Below, piece by piece: positions 1-13,991 of a stretch of DNA of 49,697 bases (position 1 is the stretch's first letter; each line of letters starts with the position of its first letter). A program made the translations under genes and the position numbers. The stretch lies in NCBI GenBank assembly GCA_026165385.1, contig GCA_026165385.1_4524.2; one strand, 5' to 3'. The notes beneath the pieces are model-generated. The model saw only the letters and a program-made list of their open reading frames with translations, did no database searches and was not told where the DNA came from. The stretch comes from a phage.

Positions 1-2
1 GA

Positions 3-161
<159 letters not shown>

Positions 162-177
162 TAATTTTCACAAAACA

Positions 178-213
178 GTTTACATAAGGATGATGGTGTG
201 TTACTATCATCCT
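178..213 (+). promoter_or_regulatory. Early promoter-like element (-35 GTTTAC) with inverted repeat flanking -10
   Basis: GTTTAC at 178-183; inverted repeat AGGATGAT (187-194) / ATCATCCT (206-213) around a TACTAT-like -10; upstream of the CDS at 242. Confidence 0.45.
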
Positions 214-241
214 ATCAAATAAACAGCCTCAAGGAAATAAA

Positions 242-529
242 ATGAAAACCTATAAAGAATTTATATCACCTGTTGCTAACGTTTCTACTCTGACCGAAGC
301 ATCCCTTACTTCTGAAGTTATTAAAACAAATAAAGGACGTGAGGGTAAACCAATGATTAGTCTGGTTGACGGTGAAGAAGTAAAAGGTACTGTTTACTTA
401 GGGGATGGATGGTCTGCTAAGAAAGATGGCGCTACTATTGTTATCTCTCCAGCTGAAGAGACTGCACTGTTTAAAGCTAAGCATATTTCTGTAGCTCAGC
501 TTAAAATTATTGCAAAAACTCTTCTGTAA
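242..529 (+). CDS. Internal protein-like (capsid-targeted, injected) protein, 95 aa
   Basis: N-terminus MKTYKEFI resembles the T4 internal-protein capsid targeting sequence MKTYQEFIAE; L-T-E protease-type site at residues 17-19; SD AAGGAAA upstream. Confidence 0.7.
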   Translation: MKTYKEFISPVANVSTLTEASLTSEVIKTNKGREGKPMISLVDGEEVKGTVYLGDGWSAKKDGATIVISPAEETALFKAKHISVAQLKIIAKTLL

Positions 530-532
530 GTA

Positions 533-569
533 GTTTACAACACGATAGGACTATGTTATAGTAGTCCTA
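533..569 (+). promoter_or_regulatory. Early promoter with stem-loop (PeSL-type cassette)
   Basis: GTTTAC 533-538; inverted repeat TAGGACTA (546-553) / TAGTCCTA (562-569) flanking a TGTTATAGT -10; near-identical copies at 8209, 9504 and 19744. Confidence 0.5.
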
Positions 570-599
570 TCAAAACAAATGAGTAAATGGAGAAATAAA

Positions 600-785
600 A
601 TGAAACGCGCTGAACTGATTCGTAATGTTGCTGTAGTAATTGCTTCAATGGCTTTTAGTTTTTCGATGTTTGTAGGATTCATTTGTGGACTACTGACAAC
701 AACTGAAAACTCTATCTCATTGGTAGTAGCATTTCTAATCGGTTTAATCGCTATTGTTATGGATAAAATTGCAAAAGGTGAGTAA
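600..785 (+). CDS. Small membrane protein, 61 aa (alternative start 579)
   Basis: ATG at 600 preceded by GGAG; two hydrophobic helices (VAVVIASMAFSFSMFVGFICGLL, LVVAFLIGLIAIV). Confidence 0.5.
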   Translation: MKRAELIRNVAVVIASMAFSFSMFVGFICGLLTTTENSISLVVAFLIGLIAIVMDKIAKGE

Positions 786-1148
786 ATGAAATATCATGTA
801 TATGCAGATTTTGAAGCAAATCCTTCTAAAGACCCTGATTGTCGTTTGATACGCAGACCATTTGATTCAGCGGCTCAAGCATGGGCTTGGATTAAAACTT
901 GTACTCCTTCTTACACTTTCTTTGAAGTGGTAGACGATAACGGAGTTCTGCATCCAGAACCTACAGAAACTATTAATTTCCTTCTGTTTGCTGGTTATGA
1001 CTGTTATCCTCTTGGTGGTATTGATGATCTTGTTGCTACAGGAAAAACTGTTGAAGCTCTTCGCGAAATTTATAAAAACGCGGAAGAAAATTTTGACTGG
1101 TATCATATTGTTGATGCTCATACCTTTGAAGTGGTGGAACACTCATGA
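786..1148 (+). CDS. Hypothetical protein, 120 aa
   Basis: Intact ORF immediately following the previous stop; stop overlaps the next start (ATGA). Confidence 0.6.
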   Translation: MKYHVYADFEANPSKDPDCRLIRRPFDSAAQAWAWIKTCTPSYTFFEVVDDNGVLHPEPTETINFLLFAGYDCYPLGGIDDLVATGKTVEALREIYKNAEENFDWYHIVDAHTFEVVEHS

Positions 1149-1435
1149 TTCTTTATGCTAAAGTAAAATCTGTCGAGAATGGATATGAAAGCGATCAACG
1201 TGCAGCTAAAGCACTAGTTAATGACTACGGTATTCTAACTAATTTTGAAGTTGAAAAGGTTTACATCGACCGTTCATCTTCGCAAGTTAAATTACTCTGT
1301 GAAGACGATAAATTTAACACAGTTAACTTTGATTTCTTTATTGAAACAGAAAAAGGCCCTCTTGAATATGATATTTTCAAGAATCCTTTGAAATTACGTT
1401 GCATTGAATATAATTACATTAATATGGTACGGTGA
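1145..1435 (+). CDS. Hypothetical protein, 96 aa
   Basis: ORF with ATGA overlap to the upstream gene; compact operon context. Confidence 0.6.
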   Translation: MILYAKVKSVENGYESDQRAAKALVNDYGILTNFEVEKVYIDRSSSQVKLLCEDDKFNTVNFDFFIETEKGPLEYDIFKNPLKLRCIEYNYINMVR

Positions 1436-1439
1436 GTAA

Positions 1440-1955
1440 ATGAATATTTGTTTAGGCAGTACAATTCCTAAGGGCTACGTAATTGATGTCACTACCTATG
1501 AAAATGATGGTGACAACTATAAAACCAAAACATTGTTTGAAGTGGAAGAGCATGAGCTCCAACAGTTTAAATATCTCTTGAAGAAATTTAAGAGCCGTCA
1601 TTCTAGCACTAAAGCTGAACGTTACTGTGGTAATACACCATTCAGTGATTGCTCGCTTTTAATTTATGAATACTTGGTTGAAGGACTGTTCTCAGACCAG
1701 CTTTATCCAGAATTCATTAAAAAGGTCTTTGATATTGAAGTCGACCTTGGTAATAAATCTGAAGAAGACGAATCGCGTGTATTCGACCTGTTCCGTGAGA
1801 ATGGATATTTAGTATCAGAAGGTCTCGTTGGTATTCTTGGCCATGCTTCTGAATATTATGATTATGATTTCTTGCGTGTAGTTGAATGTGTTGAATTTGC
1901 TTATATTGAAGAAGAAATCGTTTTGCCAACTGTTAAAATGATTGATTTGCTTTAA
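1440..1955 (+). CDS. Hypothetical protein, 171 aa
   Basis: ORF with GGTGAG SD-like sequence upstream; no recognisable domain. Confidence 0.6.
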   Translation: MNICLGSTIPKGYVIDVTTYENDGDNYKTKTLFEVEEHELQQFKYLLKKFKSRHSSTKAERYCGNTPFSDCSLLIYEYLVEGLFSDQLYPEFIKKVFDIEVDLGNKSEEDESRVFDLFRENGYLVSEGLVGILGHASEYYDYDFLRVVECVEFAYIEEEIVLPTVKMIDLL

Positions 1956-2034
1956 GAATTATGTGTTATTATTAATTCATACCCTCTATTACCAAAGGTA
2001 CTCTAAAGTGCCTTTCATAATAGAAAGTTATTTA

Positions 2035-2106
2035 GGCCCTGTAGCTCAATGGGAGAGCTGTCAGCTCATAACTGATAGGTAGCTGGATCGAAACCAGCCA
2101 GGGTCA
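2035..2106 (+). tRNA. tRNA, anticodon CAT (Met, or Ile if C34 is lysidine-modified)
   Basis: Cloverleaf by eye: acceptor GGCCCTG/CAGGGTC, D-stem GCTC/GAGC, anticodon loop CTCATAA, T-stem GCTGG/CCAGC; CCA encoded at 2107-2109. Confidence 0.75.
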
Positions 2107-2112
2107 CCAATC

Positions 2113-2186
<74 letters not shown>

Positions 2187-2207
2187 CCAACTTCAAGTGA
2201 GGAAAAT

Positions 2208-2552
2208 ATGAAAGGTAATGTTTACTTAGTAGTTCATGATTTAACGTTTTATTTTAACGAACATGATACAGTTATTTCAGACCGATTGATTAATTTGTTA
2301 TACCAACATGCAGATTACATCTATGTTCAAAATGAATTCGGCCATTGGAAGTTCATTAAAAACCGTTCCGGGTTAACTAGTTTTGAATACTTTGATCGTA
2401 AAGACCTTTTAAACGAAATCCCATTGCAACATCGGTTCCAGAAACGCGAATCATTATATTATTGCCGTCATATACCAAACGCCGAATGTGTTAATGAAGC
2501 GATTAATCTATGGGGACGGCGTCGAGAGCAAATTGATGATATGCCAAAATAA
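2208..2552 (+). CDS. Hypothetical protein, 114 aa
   Basis: ATG at 2208 after SD GAGGAAAA; the track ORF start at 2160 would overlap tRNA-Arg, so the downstream ATG is preferred. Confidence 0.55.
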   Translation: MKGNVYLVVHDLTFYFNEHDTVISDRLINLLYQHADYIYVQNEFGHWKFIKNRSGLTSFEYFDRKDLLNEIPLQHRFQKRESLYYCRHIPNAECVNEAINLWGRRREQIDDMPK

Positions 2553-2863
2553 GAAGCCGGGTCGCTACCGGCAAGTCGTCGGACTGATGTTCCCTGAGTA
2601 AGGACTGGTCTTAATAAATCTTTATGATTTGTTAATATCCCCTTACATCACAGCAGAAACGGCGCACAGAATTATCGATTCGAGGAAATATCTTTGCCGT
2701 AAGCCGAGTAGCGTTTTTGACGGAACGTTCGGATATGGACGAGATATGGCCTTTTAAAAATATTGAGTAGCGTCAACTGCTTGATAACCGGGTTCAAATC
2801 CCGGCGTTTCGTACAAACACTTGCCTTAGCAGGTGGAACCCCGACAAGGTTGCCGCAAGGCTT
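2553..2863 (+). ncRNA. Structured non-coding region, possible stable RNA(s) or degenerate tRNA
   Basis: About 310 nt with no credible + strand ORF in a dense genome; hairpin GCCGG/CCGGC at 2558-2574; canonical tRNA T-arm CCGGG-TTCAAAT-CCCGG at 2788-2804; no full cloverleaf found. Confidence 0.3.
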
Positions 2864-2891
2864 AGCCCCTTCCTTACGGTTGGGGCTTTTT
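2864..2891 (+). terminator. Rho-independent terminator
   Basis: Stem AGCCCC (2864-2869) / GGGGCT (2882-2887) followed by a T-run. Confidence 0.6.
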
Positions 2892-2936
2892 GGCATAATA
2901 ATAAATAGATAAGTTAATTAACTTAGGAAAAGCAAC

Positions 2937-3401
2937 ATGAAATCATACGCTGAATTTTTGACTGAACAATCTAGTTCAGATGTAAAAGCCGCTGCGATTG
3001 CAGCAATTCAAGCAGGTAAATATTCTTACAAAGACGCCTCCGATGAAGAACGTTTCCGTTTTATTAGAGATTTTAAAGCCGAAGGTTTTACTAATGCTAA
3101 TACTGTTAGCCGAGTTTTTAAAAGCCTAGCTGCATCAGGTGAATTGTTCCAGAAAGCTACAGGTAAAGCACCTGTGCCAAAAGCGGACCATAAAACAGCT
3201 CAAGAAAAAAATATCGCCAAAGGAATTATTTCTAAGTATGAAGCAATTCTTAAAGAGCTTTTAGTAATCAAAACAGAAGGCCAGAAACTGGCACGAGCAC
3301 ATAGTTTCAAAGATAATCCTCACGCTCATAGCCTTGAGTATGTTGAAGATATCCAAAAACTTATTAAAGACCGCATTTGGTCTGCTAAACAAATCAAATA
3401 A
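2937..3401 (+). CDS. Internal protein-like (capsid-targeted) protein, 154 aa
   Basis: N-terminus MKSYAEFLTE matches the capsid targeting sequence pattern with an L-x-E cleavage-type site; SD AGGAAAAG upstream. Confidence 0.7.
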   Translation: MKSYAEFLTEQSSSDVKAAAIAAIQAGKYSYKDASDEERFRFIRDFKAEGFTNANTVSRVFKSLAASGELFQKATGKAPVPKADHKTAQEKNIAKGIISKYEAILKELLVIKTEGQKLARAHSFKDNPHAHSLEYVEDIQKLIKDRIWSAKQIK

Positions 3402-3408
3402 CATTCTT

Positions 3409-3436
3409 AGCCCCAACCTTTCTGTTGGGGCTTTTT
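3409..3436 (+). terminator. Rho-independent terminator
   Basis: Stem AGCCCCAAC / GTTGGGGCT followed by TTTTT. Confidence 0.6.
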
Positions 3437-3523
3437 AGTTTGAATCGCTCGGAGAATGCTGTTACATATAACAATGTGATAAATAATTAATAACCAACCG
3501 ATAAATTATTTCAAGGATTTTAA

Positions 3524-4087
3524 ATGAAAACCTACGCCGAATTTTTAACCGAAGCAGCAAAATTACCATCTGAAGCAGATCTTACTAAAGTATTCTTCCA
3601 CTTAGACCCAAAAGATCGTGGCGATTTTCTTAAATGGAAAGCTAAAGCTATTGAAATGTATAACATCGATACTAGTTCTTTTACGATGAGTCAAGAAAAT
3701 AGTTTCAATAAAGCGTTTTTCAAAATTTCTAAGAAACTGGCATCTAGCACGCAGGTTCCTAAATCCGCCTTAGCTACTCCTGAACGTGCACCTGTTAAAA
3801 TTTCTAAGAATATGTTTGACACTAAAAAATATGTCAATGCTTTGAATAAAGCTCTTGACGCATTGGATGATGCAAAGAAGGCAGCCCGTGATCTTCAAGA
3901 CGTGTACACTGATTTTGATCGTAAAACTAAAGGTTCTATTTCAAATAGCGAACGCAATAGTGTAAGTGTTTATTCTGATAGCCTTGATGTTCTTGGCGAT
4001 GCGTATACTGAAATTAAAAATCGTATTAACACTGCATCTAAGCTAAAAGCTGCTGCCGAAGCTATAATAACTAAACTAGGTAAATAA
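3524..4087 (+). CDS. Internal protein-like (capsid-targeted) protein, 187 aa
   Basis: N-terminus MKTYAEFLTE matches the capsid targeting sequence pattern; SD AAGGA upstream. Confidence 0.7.
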   Translation: MKTYAEFLTEAAKLPSEADLTKVFFHLDPKDRGDFLKWKAKAIEMYNIDTSSFTMSQENSFNKAFFKISKKLASSTQVPKSALATPERAPVKISKNMFDTKKYVNALNKALDALDDAKKAARDLQDVYTDFDRKTKGSISNSERNSVSVYSDSLDVLGDAYTEIKNRINTASKLKAAAEAIITKLGK

Positions 4088-4093
4088 TTTTAA

Positions 4094-4120
4094 AGCCCTA
4101 TCTAAATGATAGGGCTTTTT
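4094..4120 (+). terminator. Rho-independent terminator
   Basis: Stem AGCCCTAT / ATAGGGCT followed by TTTTT. Confidence 0.6.
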
Positions 4121-4189
4121 GGTATCTAGGCCTTTCCTCTCCCTGCCCTAGAATTCCCCAGAACTTTTTAAAAATTTTTTCACAAAACT

Positions 4190-4220
4190 GTTTACATCCC
4201 TGTTCTTCCGTGGTACTATA
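4190..4220 (+). promoter_or_regulatory. Early (sigma70-type) promoter
   Basis: GTTTAC at 4190-4195 and extended -10 TGGTACTAT at 4211-4219. Confidence 0.45.
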
Positions 4221-4261
4221 CAACTATCAACTACTGATACAGAAAAAACTTGGAGAATGAA

Positions 4262-4525
4262 ATGGATAATTACGGTGAACTGTTCAACTTCTTTATGAAA
4301 TGTGTTCCAGAAGATTTCGGACGTACGGTGAATGATATTAAAGTTATTGGACCTGAACACCCAGTGTATGAAACCTATGCAGTAATGGGTAATGAAGACG
4401 GACAGTGGTATACAATTAAAGTTGTGATTAATATGTTCTCAGCTGAAGGTTACGCTAAATCGTCTACCAAAGTTTACCATGATAATGATTTTGATGCAGA
4501 AAATTATTTCAATAATATGAAATAA
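4262..4525 (+). CDS. Hypothetical protein, 87 aa
   Basis: ATG at 4262 after SD GGAG; the track ORF begins at a TTG at 4250. Confidence 0.55.
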   Translation: MDNYGELFNFFMKCVPEDFGRTVNDIKVIGPEHPVYETYAVMGNEDGQWYTIKVVINMFSAEGYAKSSTKVYHDNDFDAENYFNNMK

Positions 4526-4556
4526 AACGTTTACATGGGCTTATGATTGAGATATT

Positions 4557-4889
4557 ATGAGCCCTATTAATGAGAAGAATGTTATGAGTCTTTATACTGA
4601 ACTGAATAAAAAATCTGAAGAATCTGCTGAAACTATTTTTAAAAACGTGCAAAAGCGTATTTTAGAAAAGATGTATAACACTGCAGCTAAAGGTGAAAAA
4701 TCTTGCCGGTTTCCGATGAGGTGTTCTTCAGATTTATGCGCAAATACTATTGAATGGCTGGAAAGTGAAGGTCTTACGGTAGAGAAAAACCCGGCGACTT
4801 CTATTGACAGTGAATCATATATTAGTATTTCTTGGGATAAACCACGTATGAATGAAGGACACTACAAGTTGTTAAGTTGGAAAAATTAA
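4557..4889 (+). CDS. Hypothetical protein, 110 aa
   Basis: Intact ORF, weak SD; contains several Cys (CRFPMRCSSDLC). Confidence 0.5.
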   Translation: MSPINEKNVMSLYTELNKKSEESAETIFKNVQKRILEKMYNTAAKGEKSCRFPMRCSSDLCANTIEWLESEGLTVEKNPATSIDSESYISISWDKPRMNEGHYKLLSWKN

Positions 4890-4897
4890 AAATAATG

Positions 4898-4928
4898 ATG
4901 TACAAGCACCAAGGATGGTGATACTATA
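4898..4928 (+). promoter_or_regulatory. Early promoter-like element with spacer hairpin
   Basis: TGTACA -35 variant, hairpin CACCAAGGATGGTG in the spacer, TACTAT -10; same CAACCAAGGATGGTTGG spacer hairpin recurs at 25537 and 26557. Confidence 0.4.
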
Positions 4929-4956
4929 GACTTATCAACTACAGAGGAGTAAACAA

Positions 4957-5121
4957 ATGACTACTTTAATTATTTGGTTCGATGAAAATGAAGAAACATA
5001 CTGTGTGAATATCGGTGAAAGTCCAATGCCTGAATTTGAATCCTCAGATAAAAACTCTGTTGTATCTTGGGCTGAAGGTTATAAAGCCGCTAAAGGTGAC
5101 GTTGAAATAATTTACATCTAA
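4957..5121 (+). CDS. Small hypothetical protein, 54 aa (not in ORF track)
   Basis: ATG at 4957 after strong SD AGGAG and a promoter-like element; in-frame stop TAA at 5119-5121. Confidence 0.45.
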   Translation: MTTLIIWFDENEETYCVNIGESPMPEFESSDKNSVVSWAEGYKAAKGDVEIIYI

Positions 5122-5167
5122 GTAAGTTTATGTTATAGTAATCACATCAAATCAAGAGGAAAACAAA

Positions 5168-5395
5168 ATGGCTAAAGTTAGTATTGATGTCGTTGATTAT
5201 GAATATACCGAAGAAGTTATTCGCAACCGTCACCCTGAAGTTCGTATCGATTCAGCCCAAGATTCCAAGTTCTGGACAACTGAGCTTAATCTGAGTGGTC
5301 CTTATGAAGCTGTTAAGAAGTTCATGGTTGAAGAATACTGTGAAGGCATGCACCCGGAAGACGCCAAGTTTTATGTCAATTTGATTAAAAAATAA
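5168..5395 (+). CDS. Hypothetical protein, 75 aa
   Basis: ATG after SD AGAGGAAAA; no recognisable domain. Confidence 0.55.
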   Translation: MAKVSIDVVDYEYTEEVIRNRHPEVRIDSAQDSKFWTTELNLSGPYEAVKKFMVEEYCEGMHPEDAKFYVNLIKK

Positions 5396-5430
5396 TTTAC
5401 AAACTCTTGAGAGCAGAGTATAATGCTCTC
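5395..5430 (+). promoter_or_regulatory. Early promoter with stem-loop around -10
   Basis: ATTTAC -35 variant; inverted repeat GAGAGCA (5409-5415) / TGCTCTC (5424-5430) enclosing GTATAAT; followed by a TTGGATAATAAA motif. Confidence 0.45.
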
Positions 5431-5465
5431 ATTGGATAATAAACCACCAATTGAAAGGTAATAAT

Positions 5466-6059
5466 ATGAACACACTGAAGAAACTTGTTGAATTCATCCG
5501 CACTAAACTGGGTACTGCTATGGCTAAAAATCTGACTGTCGAAGAACAGTATAACGCAGCTGCAGATAAGTTGATTACCCAAATCAAAGAACTAAAAACG
5601 GCTTCTGTTAAATCTATTAATGAAGAAAAACGTATTCGCGAACTTGTTATTGAAAAGAATAAGCAAGCCGCTTCTAAGGAACGTGAAATTCGTAAGCTCT
5701 TGGCTGAAGGACAAGATGTTACCGTGCATGCTAAGCTTGGTCTTCTGTATCGTCGAACTGCAGAACAACTTAATACAAAAGCTGACGGGTATGCCGCTAT
5801 GCGAATTGAAATTGCTCGTAAGGTGGTTGAACTTGATGATGCTCGTCAGAATCTGGCAATCAAACTCGAATACATTCGTGAAACTCGAGCAGCCAATGCC
5901 CTTGGTATCTCTACGGCTGATGATGTAATTGAAATCGCTGCACTGACTAAGGTTGATATCGAAGACACTCTGACTCGTGTTGAAACGTTCAATGGCACTC
6001 CAGCCGGTGTCGAAACCACTTCTGCTGATGTACAAGAATATATTAACTCTTTGAAATAA
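5466..6059 (+). CDS. Coiled-coil protein, 197 aa
   Basis: ATG at 5466 after SD GAAAGG; long predicted alpha-helical/coiled-coil sequence; any resemblance to PspA/IM30 is too weak to assert. Confidence 0.6.
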
Positions 6060-11716: not shown

Positions 11717-11750
11717 GTAATAAATACCTCCTATAAACGTGGGAGGTATT

Positions 11751-12239
11751 ATGAATATATTTGAAATGCTTCGTAATGACGAAGGTCTTAGACTGACTTT
11801 ATACAAAGACACCGAAGGCTTTTGGACGATTGGCATAGGCCATTTAGTAACAAAGAACCCGTCTTTAGCCGTAGCTAAAGCTGAACTTGACAGAATGATC
11901 GGACGTAAATGCAACGGTACAATTACCCTTGATGAGGCTGAAAAGCTATTTAATGAAGACGTTGATAAAGCCGTTCGCGGAATCTTGGGTAATGCTAAAC
12001 TTAAACCGGTATATGATTCTTTAGATGCAGTTCGTCGATGTGCATTGGTCAATATGGTCTTCCAAATGGGTGTAGCAGGCGTCGCCGGTTTTACTAATTC
12101 TCTTCGTATGCTTCAACAGAAACGTTGGGATGAAGCGGCAGTAAATCTAGCCCAATCTAAATGGTATCGTCAGACACCTAATCGCGCGAAACGCGTAATC
12201 TCAACATTTAAAACAGGAACTTGGAAAGCGTATATATGA
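11751..12239 (+). CDS. e: Endolysin (T4 lysozyme e, muramidase)
   Basis: 162 aa starting [32 protein letters not shown], near-identical to T4 lysozyme including catalytic Glu11/Asp20 context; SD GGGAGG. Confidence 0.95.
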
Positions 12240-12517
12240 AAACATATAGTGAATTTTTATCAGAATCTATTCTTAACGAAGCTACTGACACATTTGCAAC
12301 TAAGCTAGGTGCAGCTTTGGTTGAAGCCGAAAGTCTATTAGCACGTATTTCTGAACTTGCTAGTAAGATAGATACTCGCAAATTTGAACGTACCAGCGAT
12401 ATCGCTAAGCTTGAAGCCTTGTTGCGTATGTGCGATAAACCGGAAGAAATCGCTAAGAACGGCTCGCTAATGAAACAACGTCTTGAAAAATATATTTCAG
12501 GCGCTTCAGAAAAATAG
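12236..12517 (+). CDS. Internal protein-like (capsid-targeted) protein, 93 aa
   Basis: N-terminus [10 protein letters not shown]; ATGA overlap with the lysozyme stop; position matches T4 ipII/ipIII between e and denV. Confidence 0.7.
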
Positions 12518-12518
12518 T

Positions 12519-12574
12519 GTTTACTTCCTCCAAGGTCTTTGATACTATATACATTCATCAACTACTTGGAGGAA
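12519..12574 (+). promoter_or_regulatory. Early promoter with 10-bp inverted repeat whose 3' arm contains the SD
   Basis: GTTTAC 12519-12524; TTCCTCCAAG (12525-12534) / CTTGGAGGAA (12565-12574); -10-like GATACTATAT between the arms. Confidence 0.5.
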
Positions 12575-12577
12575 ATT

Positions 12578-12991
12578 ATGACCCGTATCAATTTAACACT
12601 TGTTTCTGAACTGACCGACCAACATCTTATGGCTGAGTATCGTGAATTACCACGCGTATTTGGTGCAGTCCGTAAACATGTTCAAAACGGTAAACGTGTA
12701 AAGGATTTTAAAATCTCTCCAACATTTATCTTAGGCACAGGTCACGTAACATTCTTTTACGACAAACTCGAATTTTTACGTTTACGTCAAATCGAGCTAA
12801 TCGCTGAATGTTTGAAACGTGGTTTCAAAATCAAGGACACGACAGTCCAGGATATTTCCGACATCCCTGCCGAATTTCGTAATAATTATGTCCCGTCCGA
12901 AGCGTCCATTGCGATAAGTCAAGCACGCTTAGATGAAAAAATTGCTCAACGTCCGACTTGGTACAAATACTATGGTAAATCAATTTACTAA
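12578..12991 (+). CDS. denV: Endonuclease V (pyrimidine-dimer DNA glycosylase)
   Basis: 137 aa starting [29 protein letters not shown], near-identical to T4 DenV. Confidence 0.95.
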
Positions 12992-12997
12992 GGAAAA

Positions 12998-13258
12998 ATG
13001 AAAATGTATCAAGAATTTATCGCTGAAGCAGTTGCCAAAGGTCCTAAATTTAAAGTTAAAGCTTTCGTTGGTGATGCCGAAGACTTTGGCTCATTAAAAC
13101 GTAACGGGTATTCTTTCTTAGGTGGCGATGGTAAAGAAATCAACACCTATGCAAAACGTAGTGAAATTGCTTATGTTGTAGCAAGTCCTAAAGTAGATGT
13201 TGACGATATTGGATACGATTTTAACAACGTCGGAATTATTTCTGGCGGTAAAGCTTAA
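12998..13258 (+). CDS. Internal protein-like (capsid-targeted) protein, 86 aa
   Basis: N-terminus MKMYQEFIAEA, almost the canonical capsid targeting sequence; SD AAGGAAAAA. Confidence 0.7.
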   Translation: MKMYQEFIAEAVAKGPKFKVKAFVGDAEDFGSLKRNGYSFLGGDGKEINTYAKRSEIAYVVASPKVDVDDIGYDFNNVGIISGGKA

Positions 13259-13261
13259 ATT

Positions 13262-13291
13262 GTTTACGCTTAAGTATTAATATGGTATAAT
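13262..13291 (+). promoter_or_regulatory. Early promoter (strong consensus)
   Basis: GTTTAC 13262-13267 and extended -10 TGGTATAAT 13283-13291. Confidence 0.55.
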
Positions 13292-13321
13292 TACTCTATC
13301 AAAACAAACAAGGAAACAAAA

Positions 13322-13636
13322 ATGAAAACGTATAAAGAATTTATTGCAGAATCCGCCAACCAACGCGTTGAAGGTGGTTATATTTGGATTGAACAAGTTG
13401 AGCCACCGAGCCGCACTTCTACAGGTAAATGGAAAATTACTGTTGATGGTCCTGGCGGTAAACGTAGGACTCTTAAAGAAATTAATGGGTACTACGAAGA
13501 AGCTCTTTCGGATGCAGGAACTTACATGATGCAAATCATGATTAAAAACCCTGAAAACCGTTTTGCAGCTAAAGTCTTCCGCCGTATTGGTAATAAACTT
13601 TATGATGCATACTCTAAAAACTTCCCTAAAGAATAA
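13322..13636 (+). CDS. Internal protein-like (capsid-targeted) protein, 104 aa
   Basis: N-terminus MKTYKEFIAES; SD AAGGAAA. Confidence 0.7.
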   Translation: MKTYKEFIAESANQRVEGGYIWIEQVEPPSRTSTGKWKITVDGPGGKRRTLKEINGYYEEALSDAGTYMMQIMIKNPENRFAAKVFRRIGNKLYDAYSKNFPKE

Positions 13637-13661
13637 CATAAATTAAAACAATAGGAACAAA

Positions 13662-13991
13662 ATGAAAACATATCAAGAGTTTATCACTGAAGTTACATTA
13701 TCTGCGGAACAGAAAGCTGCTATCGAAGAAGGTAAAAATCCCAAAGTAACATATAAAGTAAATAGTAAAGGCGTTTTTGATGGCTTGGTTCAAGACCCTG
13801 AATTGAAAAAAGCTCTTTCTAAAACTAATGCGTACTTTGCTCCTAAATTTAACACAGCCGGTGTACTTATTGGATTGGATGTATTCAACTCTAAAGGTGT
13901 TCTATCTAATGCCTTTGGTTATGCCGCTAACAAAATTACCAAAGCCGCATGGGAATCCAATACCAAACAAGCTCAAAAGCCTAGAGTATAA
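13662..13991 (+). CDS. Internal protein-like (capsid-targeted) protein, 109 aa
   Basis: N-terminus MKTYQEFITEV; SD-like TAGGAACAAA. Confidence 0.7.
   Translation: MKTYQEFITEVTLSAEQKAAIEEGKNPKVTYKVNSKGVFDGLVQDPELKKALSKTNAYFAPKFNTAGVLIGLDVFNSKGVLSNAFGYAANKITKAAWESNTKQAQKPRV

Follow-up and report, generated by a model that had tools for sequence, protein, structure and literature searches.

The window, a 49,697-nucleotide (nt) stretch of phage DNA (GenBank assembly GCA_026165385.1, contig GCA_026165385.1_4524.2), was analysed for three open reading frames (ORFs) that start at positions 242, 2937 and 3524 and share an N-terminus of the kind that targets T4 internal proteins to the capsid. What is known here is ipI, to which ORF 242 corresponds; what is new is a pair of cassette genes of the T-even internal-protein kind at a locus that is empty in T4. 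Over its first 4.5 kb, the window shared 97% identity with the Escherichia phages ST2 and PhAPEC2 and 95% with RB69, all Mosigvirus relatives whose GenBank records run in the reverse orientation, and the source phage is classed by this likeness as an RB69-like Mosigvirus of the T4 type. With gene names taken from PhAPEC2, RB69 and T4 annotation, the order was the end of 57B, ORF 242, trna.4, trna.3, trna.2, an RB69ORF151c homolog, tRNA-Met and tRNA-Arg, followed by an RB69ORF150c homolog, a non-coding stretch, ORF 2937, ORF 3524 and e.8.

All three ORFs were present on the plus strand at the lengths first assigned to them, and their translations began with MKTYKEFISP (ORF 242), MKSYAEFLTE (ORF 2937) and MKTYAEFLTE (ORF 3524), which fit the common form MK[ST]Y.EF[IL]. 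When chance occurrence was checked, six-frame translation of the window gave seven instances of the pattern MK.Y.EF[IL]; in 300 random sequences from a first-order Markov model, the mean was 0.007. The seven sites (242, 2937, 3524, 12236, 12998, 13322 and 13662) were all on the plus strand and all at ORF starts. The three ORFs carry this T4 capsid-targeting sequence, and their products are likely to be packaged and injected. The first-pass annotation had further described the bodies of the three proteins as different. With the first 10 residues removed, no BLASTP match was found among them or to the other motif-bearing ORFs of the window, and the likeness of ORFs 2937 and 3524 was confined to residues 1-10. 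When T4 IPI, IPII and IPIII, trimmed in the same way, were compared with the motif proteins, the sole significant pair was ORF 242 and T4 IPI. To this extent the description was borne out; however, the two longer proteins both matched PHROG 2280 and had the same predicted architecture.

ORF 242 matched the Pfam family PF11634 (IPI_T4) at 2.6e-49, with residues 20-95 covering profile positions 1-76 of 76 and a score of 165.5 bits against a gathering cut-off of 25. It also matched PDB entry 2JUB, the nuclear magnetic resonance (NMR) structure of mature IPI* (7.4e-41, residues 20-95 against chain residues 1-76), and PHROG 4363, internal virion protein (1.9e-47). Beyond residue 10, the BLASTP identity to T4 IPI was 91%. 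Over the mature protein, 70 of the 76 residues were identical to T4 IPI* and six differed; RB69 IPI differed at two mature positions. Since the two precursors align as MKTFKEFTSTTTPVSTITE followed by ATLTSE in T4 and MKTYKEFISPVANVSTLTE followed by ASLTSE in the window, the proteins are alike in their length of 95 amino acids (aa), 19-residue propeptide, L/I-x-E site and 76-aa mature form. The cleavage site reads L17-T-E19 followed by Ala20 in ORF 242 and I17-T-E19 followed by Ala in T4. The position between 57B and trna.4 was also the same, by synteny with T4, RB69 and PhAPEC2. ORF 242 is the ortholog of T4 IPI, which is already known, and not a new internal protein; of the three further internal proteins first proposed, only ORFs 2937 and 3524, which do carry the capsid-targeting sequence, are left.

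IPI, or Ip1, is injected and classically known to inhibit the type IV restriction enzyme GmrSD of CT596 (PMC12373910), and GmrSD inhibition has also been reported or discussed for RB69 IPI (PMC12373910, PMC6024577). The genus of the source phage has arabinosyl-hydroxymethylcytosine (hmC) DNA, compared to the glucosyl-hmC of T4 (PMC6024577). By analogy with T4, ipI would be expressed from its early promoter, the propeptide would carry the product into the prohead, the protease gp21 would cut after Leu17-Thr18-Glu19, and the 76-residue IPI* would be ejected with the DNA and may inhibit a GmrSD-type, modification-dependent nuclease. At the ipI locus of RB69, an ORF annotated as hypothetical (RB69ORF156c, RB69 2132-2458) starts with MKTYQEFIAE and is an unlabelled internal-protein candidate; it was absent from the window.

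A stem-loop at 187-213 (-15.4 kcal/mol, z = -3.9) was embedded in the ipI promoter, and an element at 157-185, upstream of ipI, was 86% identical to an element before e.8. After ORF 242, a second hairpin at 544-571 (-16.6 kcal/mol) was found, with no T-run and a sequence unrelated to the terminator repeats described below. A hairpin terminator of one repeated type had been proposed after each of the three ORFs; this was confirmed for ORFs 2937 and 3524 and not for ORF 242. As a terminator of ipI, the 544-571 hairpin was rejected on three grounds: it has no T-run, it lies within the sigma70-type promoter of trna.4 and it falls outside the 31-nt repeat family. It is a promoter-embedded stem-loop. 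In T4, ipI, ipII and ipIII have the same layout of early promoter and stem-loop as ipI of the window, with other stem sequences. These stem-loops lie between or over the -35 and -10 elements. Their position is kept between T4 and the source phage and their stem sequences are not, a pattern that would be compatible with selection for structure.

ORFs 2937 and 3524 lie approximately 2.4 kb downstream of ORF 242, between rnaC and e.8, which refuted the idea of a single second locus for all three genes. Window positions 2547-2893 (rnaD, rnaC and the terminator at 2861-2892) were 91% identical to their T4 counterpart by blastn, and this terminator, T1, was homologous to the T4 rnaC terminator. T1 is read as ending the tRNA/rnaC transcription unit, and is also the repeat that bounds the ORF 2937 cassette on its left. 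T2, 87% identical to T1, lies between the two cassettes, closing that of ORF 2937 on the right and bounding that of ORF 3524 on the left; the right boundary of the latter is T3. All three belong to a family of 31-nt repeats, each made of a G+C-rich stem and TTTTT (2861-2891; 3406-3436, 87%; 4090-4120, 65%). In T4, the rnaC terminator is directly followed by GGTATCTAAGCC and the e.8 promoter, and the rnaC-e.8 interval is 285 bp long and empty of genes. In the window, the T4-like continuation (GGGCTTTTTGGTATCTAGGCC) first appeared after the third terminator, with the T4 junction alignment covering 4112-4137, and the e.8 promoter marks the end of the inserted segment. As the continuation was found only after the third terminator, the window has a two-unit insertion of 1.2 kb relative to T4, each unit ended by a terminator.

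The same unit boundaries were seen in other phages. RB69 and RB14 aligned to 2551-2891 and 3406-4137 and were without 2892-3405. Their only terminator can be aligned with T1 as well as with T2, so that exactly the ORF 2937 unit is missing from them. Conversely, the Yersinia phage fD1 kept the ORF 2937 unit and was missing the ORF 3524 unit. Neither cassette was present in T4, only the 187-aa gene in RB69 and RB14, and only the 154/157-aa gene in fD1 and in the loci L011, L012 and L013; in the alignments, the breakpoints between phages fell inside the terminator repeats. A survey of 10 IMG/VR loci and several GenBank phages found the rnaC-e.8 interval to hold nothing, the 154/157-aa gene, the 187-aa gene, both of these, or a membrane ORF with a 205-aa targeting-sequence protein that was 33% identical to ORF 3524. 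This presence or absence among close relatives fits the non-essential, variable character of internal-protein genes. ORF 3524 was 95-99% identical at the amino acid level in 164 of 165 phage records, across Mosigvirus and Tequatrovirus. Its cassette was 94% identical to RB14 at the DNA level compared to approximately 76% for the neighbouring ipI and e.6 regions, which points to a recent exchange between genera.

Several further arrangements were observed at or near this locus. In the IMG/VR loci L008 and L010 (4636-5877), a 184-aa predicted membrane protein (MKLLKYLSW...) was followed by the 205-aa protein, whose gene had a canonical TATAAATA upstream, giving a third content type for the hot spot. 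In RB69 (5251-5813), the 187-aa gene was split into ORF149c and ORF148c, by a frameshift or a sequencing error. Chimeric proteins from public assemblies were also seen: P0008 combined a trna.3-like N-terminal part with the last 30 residues of ORF 2937; P0019 combined ORF 3524 residues 97-122 with an apparent NudE C-terminal part; and P0018 combined an N-terminal part resembling the ORF downstream of e.8 in locus L009 with the C-terminal part of ORF 3524. All three look like deletion recombinants of the hyperplastic region.

Upstream of each of the two ORFs was a late-promoter-like octamer, AATAAATA for ORF 2937 and GATAAATA for ORF 3524. At the latter position, PhAPEC2, RB69, phiE142 and the loci L014 and L016 read AATAAATA. 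Across 22 distinct upstream regions of the family, taken from Mosigvirus, Tequatrovirus, IMG/VR contigs and a Klebsiella phage, the form NATAAATA was kept in 21, roughly 26-40 nt before the ATG. The canonical TATAAATA was found in 10 of the 22, just after the terminator, and the surrounding spacer was variable. In the window, the heptamer ATAAATA occurred at seven sites compared to 23.3 +/- 4.3 expected, an approximately threefold depletion, which suggests selection against spurious late promoters in the early-gene region. Six of the seven sites were on the plus strand. Two of the seven belong to the octamers 29 and 38 nt before ORFs 2937 and 3524; another, AATAAATACC at 11719, aligned with the T4 late promoter of gene e and had the same variant as AATAAATA. 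In T4, A replaces T at -13 in nine of fifty late promoters, and RB69 and other relatives show little conservation at this site (PMC2988020, PMC1524935). An early reading that there were no late promoters, based on the single exact TATAAATA in the window, was reversed by the one-off variants, the depletion and the conservation in relatives. Given the conservation of the octamer and the documented A at -13, each unit was read as terminator, late promoter, Shine-Dalgarno site, ORF and terminator. The conserved octamer would time synthesis at or before prohead assembly, on sequence evidence alone. No such octamer was found within 160 nt upstream of the T4 ip genes. ORFs 2937 and 3524 would thus be regulated differently from ipI, by late octamers as opposed to an early promoter with a hairpin.

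Features of the first 4.3 kb of the window
Feature	Position (nt)	Strand	Details or basis
ipI early promoter, sigma70-type	179-213	+	TTTACA 179-184, 17 nt, TACTAT 202-207
ipI, internal protein I precursor, 95 aa	242-529	+	Pfam, PDB, PHROG, synteny
IPI propeptide, aa 1-19	242-298		MKTYKEFISPVANVSTLTE
Mature IPI*, 76 aa	299-526		
trna.4 early promoter	534-571	+	TTTACA 534-539, 17-nt spacer, TATAGT 557-562
tRNA-Met	2035-2109	+	ARAGORN; Rfam tRNA
tRNA-Arg	2113-2189	+	ARAGORN; Rfam tRNA
rnaD homolog (~2549-2668) and rnaC homolog (~2675-2813)	2549-2813	+	blastn to T4
Terminator T1	2861-2892	+	stem 2864-2887 and TTTTT; -17.0 kcal/mol; reference copy of the repeat
Late-promoter-like octamer	2900-2907	+	AATAAATA; 29 nt upstream of ORF 2937 ATG
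ORF 2937, predicted internal head protein, 154 aa	2937-3401	+	capsid-targeting sequence MKSYAEFLTE, nt 2937-2966
Terminator T2	3406-3436	+	stem 3409-3432 and TTTTT; -16.1 kcal/mol, z = -4.1
Late-promoter-like octamer	3478-3485	+	GATAAATA; 38 nt upstream of ORF 3524 ATG
ORF 3524, predicted internal head protein, 187 aa	3524-4087	+	capsid-targeting sequence MKTYAEFLTE, nt 3524-3553
Terminator T3	4090-4120	+	stem 4092-4118 and TTTTT; -17.7 kcal/mol
e.8 early promoter	4169-4219	+	TTTACA 4191-4196, TACTAT 4214-4219; 94% identity to T4

In both ORF 2937 and ORF 3524, the aromatic Tyr4 and the Phe7 of a targeting sequence are present, and positions 8-10 (L8-T9-E10) fit the L/I-x-E motif for cleavage by gp21. 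From residue 11, after the predicted cut, the sequences continue with QSSSDVK and AAKLPSEADLTK, respectively. The predicted mature forms are 144 aa, 16.0 kDa and pI (isoelectric point) 9.6 for ORF 2937, and 177 aa, 19.6 kDa and pI 9.5 for ORF 3524, each with a net charge of +8. Homologs have an LNE site, which is sometimes duplicated as LNEAVLNE, and the targeting sequence is kept in distant ones (MKSYAQFLNE in Tequatrovirus, MKFKEFLAE in a Klebsiella phage). PHROG 2280, a family with no functional or virion label, was matched end to end by both proteins (ORF 2937, 3.5e-52; ORF 3524, 2.9e-53). Its Klebsiella phage members lie at the same position, after tRNA genes and a terminator, and share the targeting sequence and N-terminal domain with ORF 2937 (hhalign 99.8%), while the likeness of their C-terminal halves to ORF 3524 is weak (20.7%). 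With a common N-terminal domain and a different C-terminal half, the family is mosaic. Between the bodies of ORFs 2937 and 3524, hhalign gave 41.5% over the C-terminal hairpin, and a common ancestry, though conceivable, is unproven.

The AlphaFold models rest on shallow alignments. That of ORF 2937 (predicted local distance difference test score, pLDDT, 74.6) consisted of an unstructured targeting peptide, a three-helix N-terminal domain (13-67), a flexible linker rich in Pro, Ala and Lys (72-86) and a long helical hairpin (85-151). The model of ORF 3524 had the same layout at low confidence (pLDDT 58) and was judged too poor for a fold search. Homologs of ORF 2937 were found in 512 phage records and of ORF 3524 in 165, and all listed ones say hypothetical protein. 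The ratio of non-synonymous to synonymous substitution (dN/dS) in the ORF 2937 family was 0.04-0.26 where dS could be estimated; the family is under purifying selection and is a real gene. Its N-terminal domain has changed 6-8 times faster in amino acid sequence than the C-terminal hairpin, which is nearly invariant (dN 0.03-0.05). Searches of Pfam, NCBIfam and PADLOC with ORFs 2937 and 3524 returned only sub-threshold noise (MerR, ZntR, cytochrome b562, minor tail). Foldseek found no match to the ORF 2937 model with E < 1 in the PDB, the best being ferritin-like helical bundles with a template modelling (TM) score of 0.3, and a BFVD search gave uncharacterised T4-like phage proteins only. A phmmer search of 1.84 billion representatives with ORF 3524 gave five matches, all of them close relatives or fragments.

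For T4 IPIII, suppressor analysis has shown that positions 4 and 7 matter for targeting and positions 8 and 10 for processing, and the 10-residue sequence alone suffices to package foreign proteins into T4 heads (PMC9026906). In Yersinia phage fD1, g140 (MKSYTQFLNEAVLNE..., 157 aa), the homolog of ORF 2937 at the same genomic position, was scored as particle-associated in liquid chromatography-tandem mass spectrometry (LC-MS/MS) of purified phage (PMC8309999). The IPI of fD1 (g146) was particle-associated too, and the neighbours e.8 (g139) and trna.4 (g145) were not (PMC8309999). Packaging of the ORF 2937 and 3524 products is expected on these two grounds, the sufficiency of the T4 motif and, for the ORF 2937 family, a single permissive proteome of virions, and we infer that both are internal proteins which would be packaged, cleaved and injected in the source phage.

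The reading that we consider probable is that the region holds one known and two unannotated genes for injected head proteins, the latter two as tandem late cassettes with an anti-defence role by analogy. ORFs 2937 and 3524 would be two autonomous cassettes inserted in tandem at the rnaC terminator, each consisting of a terminator, a putative gp55-type late promoter (AATAAATA or GATAAATA), a Shine-Dalgarno site, the ORF and a terminator. The products would be made late and bind the scaffolding core through Tyr4 and Phe7. Cleavage by gp21 at Leu8-x-Glu10 would remove residues 1-10, and the basic proteins of 16 and 19.6 kDa would remain in the head and enter the cell with the DNA. There they may counter first-response defences of the host, nucleases directed at sugar-modified hmC DNA being the most plausible, and specificity would reside in the fast-evolving N-terminal helical domain. 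In this sequence of events, late transcription, the tagged precursor and the gp21 site are supported by sequence; core binding, cleavage, retention and ejection are taken over from T4.

A number of observations weigh against this interpretation. The fD1 proteome was permissive: it assigned 113 of the 277 gene products to the particle and also recovered 672 host proteins (PMC8309999), so the detection of g140 is supportive and not specific. Virion-proteome literature, including locus tags, yielded nothing for the ORF 3524 family, the fPS-65/fPS-90 paper being without a proteome. In ORF 2937, the predicted cut is followed by Gln, where Ala is usual. Genes 21 and 22, for the prohead protease (gp21) and scaffold (gp22), fall beyond the 49.7 kb of the window. 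The octamer before ORF 3524, GATAAATA, is a rarer deviation from the late consensus, and T4 ip genes use early-type promoters, so late promoters are no hallmark of the family. Finally, the bodies resemble no Ip1-3 or functionally known protein in sequence or structure searches; with residues 1-10 removed, the best BLASTP match to IPI, IPII or IPIII had an E-value of 0.042 over 45 residues.

In a rival reading, the N-terminus would have hitch-hiked by recombination at the conserved ribosome-binding site and start region of ip genes, and the proteins would not be packaged but act late in the infected cell. The DNA likeness does reach the Shine-Dalgarno region (78% between 229-265 and 3511-3547) and is 83% between 2937-2966 and 3524-3553. 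The sole proteomic support comes from the permissive data set, and none of the inspected records labels the rnaC-e.8 genes as virion or internal proteins, though they may have been described earlier in Repoila et al. 1994. Hitch-hiking is nevertheless improbable, given that the 10-residue sequence packages unrelated foreign proteins in T4 (PMC9026906), the targeting and cleavage positions are kept in Klebsiella phage homologs with a different nucleotide context, and the late promoters would time synthesis to prohead assembly. The detection of fD1 g140 in particles, where the neighbouring e.8 and trna.4 products were not detected, argues in the same direction.

If the two proteins are packaged, a first-response anti-defence role is their most likely function, with a probability that we would put near the midpoint. 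Ip1, Ip2 and Ip3 each inhibit distinct, highly diverged GmrSD enzymes, and IPIII lacking its targeting sequence is active in the cytoplasm (PMC12373910, PMC9391042). The sugar-modified hmC DNA of these phages attracts type IV enzymes (PMC6024577), and it is the combination of this with the inhibition of GmrSDs by Ip1-3 that makes the role the most likely one. It rests on analogy, since the bodies resemble no protein of known function, a further point on the negative side. The main alternative is a generic DNA-associated role, in which the packaged proteins are basic filler for charge neutralisation, DNA condensation or ejection and not specific defence inhibitors. Such a role would suit the mature forms, with their strong basicity (pI 9.5-9.6, net +8), mostly helical structure and flexible linker rich in Pro, Ala and Lys, as well as the lack of homology to known inhibitors. 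In the ORF 2937 family, the C-terminal hairpin is nearly invariant (dN 0.03-0.05), as fits a structural role that has been conserved. On the other hand, dispensable and variable genes (T4 with neither, RB69 with a split copy) fit accessory host-range genes better, the N-terminal domain evolves 6-8 times faster than the C-terminal domain, and the three T4 internal proteins once assumed to be filler now all have specific GmrSD targets (PMC12373910). Filler was considered unlikely, though somewhat less so than hitch-hiking.

A more detailed version of the injected-effector interpretation can be postulated, tentatively and with more doubt than confidence. PHROG 2280 would comprise modular late injected effectors that move via a third, previously unlabelled internal-protein exchange site at rnaC-e.8. 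The C-terminal hairpin might serve packaging, DNA association or ejection, while the N-terminal three-helix domain might bind a defence protein outside the Ip1-3 targets, for example a nuclease or sensor of arabinosyl-hmC or glucosyl-hmC DNA. Such effectors would be exchanged among Mosigvirus, Tequatrovirus and Klebsiella T4-like phages.

The remaining features of the region concern its stable RNAs. Only two tRNA genes lie between ORF 242 and ORFs 2937 and 3524, tRNA-Met and tRNA-Arg, with Rfam tRNA scores of 59.4 and 71.1 bits. A Rfam scan of positions 1-6000 returned these two tRNAs only, with no match for the rnaC/rnaD region or the hairpins. The tRNA block varies among close relatives, RB14 having ten tRNAs compared to two in the window. 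PhAPEC2 and ST2 have a third tRNA (Asn/Asx) between Met and Arg (PhAPEC2 3536-3769, compared to window 2113-2189). Among the T4 stable RNAs, rnaD is species 2 and rnaC is species 1, and the rnaC copy of the window has a tRNA-like T-arm at its 3' end (GGTTCAAATCC).

Elsewhere in the window, four more targeting-sequence ORFs of 93, 86, 104 and 109 aa were found at 12236-13991, adjoining the lysozyme gene e and around denV. This cluster is the counterpart of the T4 ipII/ipIII locus. Its first ORF is Ip5-like (RB69ORF127c; PHROG 3499), and its last two both match PHROG 3966, which is labelled as of unknown function. An IPIII homolog is present in PhAPEC2 and absent from the source phage.

T-even internal proteins have recently turned from curiosities into proven injected anti-restriction factors. 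Two widespread 'hypothetical' genes, found in 512 and 165 phages and carrying the full packaging signature, are cheap and well-defined counter-defence candidates, also useful when the host range of T4-like therapeutic phages is to be predicted. From the late-promoter cassette with its terminator boundaries, one sees how such genes pass between phage genera. The concept of internal proteins is unchanged by these results; the catalogue is extended and the annotation corrected.

Three known systems bear comparison. The promoter-early stem-loop (PeSL) cassettes of RB49 and phi1 (Arbiol et al. 2010, PMC2839356) are built from short, conserved regulatory sequences, repeated on either side of accessory ORFs, at which recombination brings about insertion and deletion. 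Their form, a promoter with a hairpin, is exactly matched by the ipI flanks at 179-213 and 534-571. The ORF 2937 and 3524 cassettes differ, being bounded by intrinsic terminators and preceded by late and not early promoters; no early promoter with at least 10 of 12 matches was found flanking these two ORFs, which do not belong to the PeSL type.

The closest likeness among proteins is to T4 IPII and IPIII. These have the same 10-residue targeting and cleavage module (MKTYQEFIAE, compared to MKSYAEFLTE and MKTYAEFLTE), are basic when mature (+5 for IPII and +10 for IPIII, compared to +8), and are non-essential and variably present, as are ORFs 2937 and 3524. The mature length of IPIII, 183 aa, is near the 177 aa of ORF 3524. 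They differ in their bodies, which have no sequence likeness, in their locus (e-denV compared to rnaC-e.8) and in their control, with early promoters and hairpins in T4 and late octamers with flanking intrinsic terminators in the cassettes. The polymorphic ip genes of T-even phages (Ip4 and beyond, as relayed for Repoila et al. 1994 in PMC12373910 and PMC3012670; Ip5 and ip7 in GenBank) appear, in these secondary accounts, to follow the same exchange principle, in which unrelated small ORFs with the targeting sequence alone in common are swapped in the hyperplastic region. The annotated ones sit between 57B and trna.4 or beside gene e, as opposed to the rnaC-e.8 interval occupied by ORFs 2937 and 3524.

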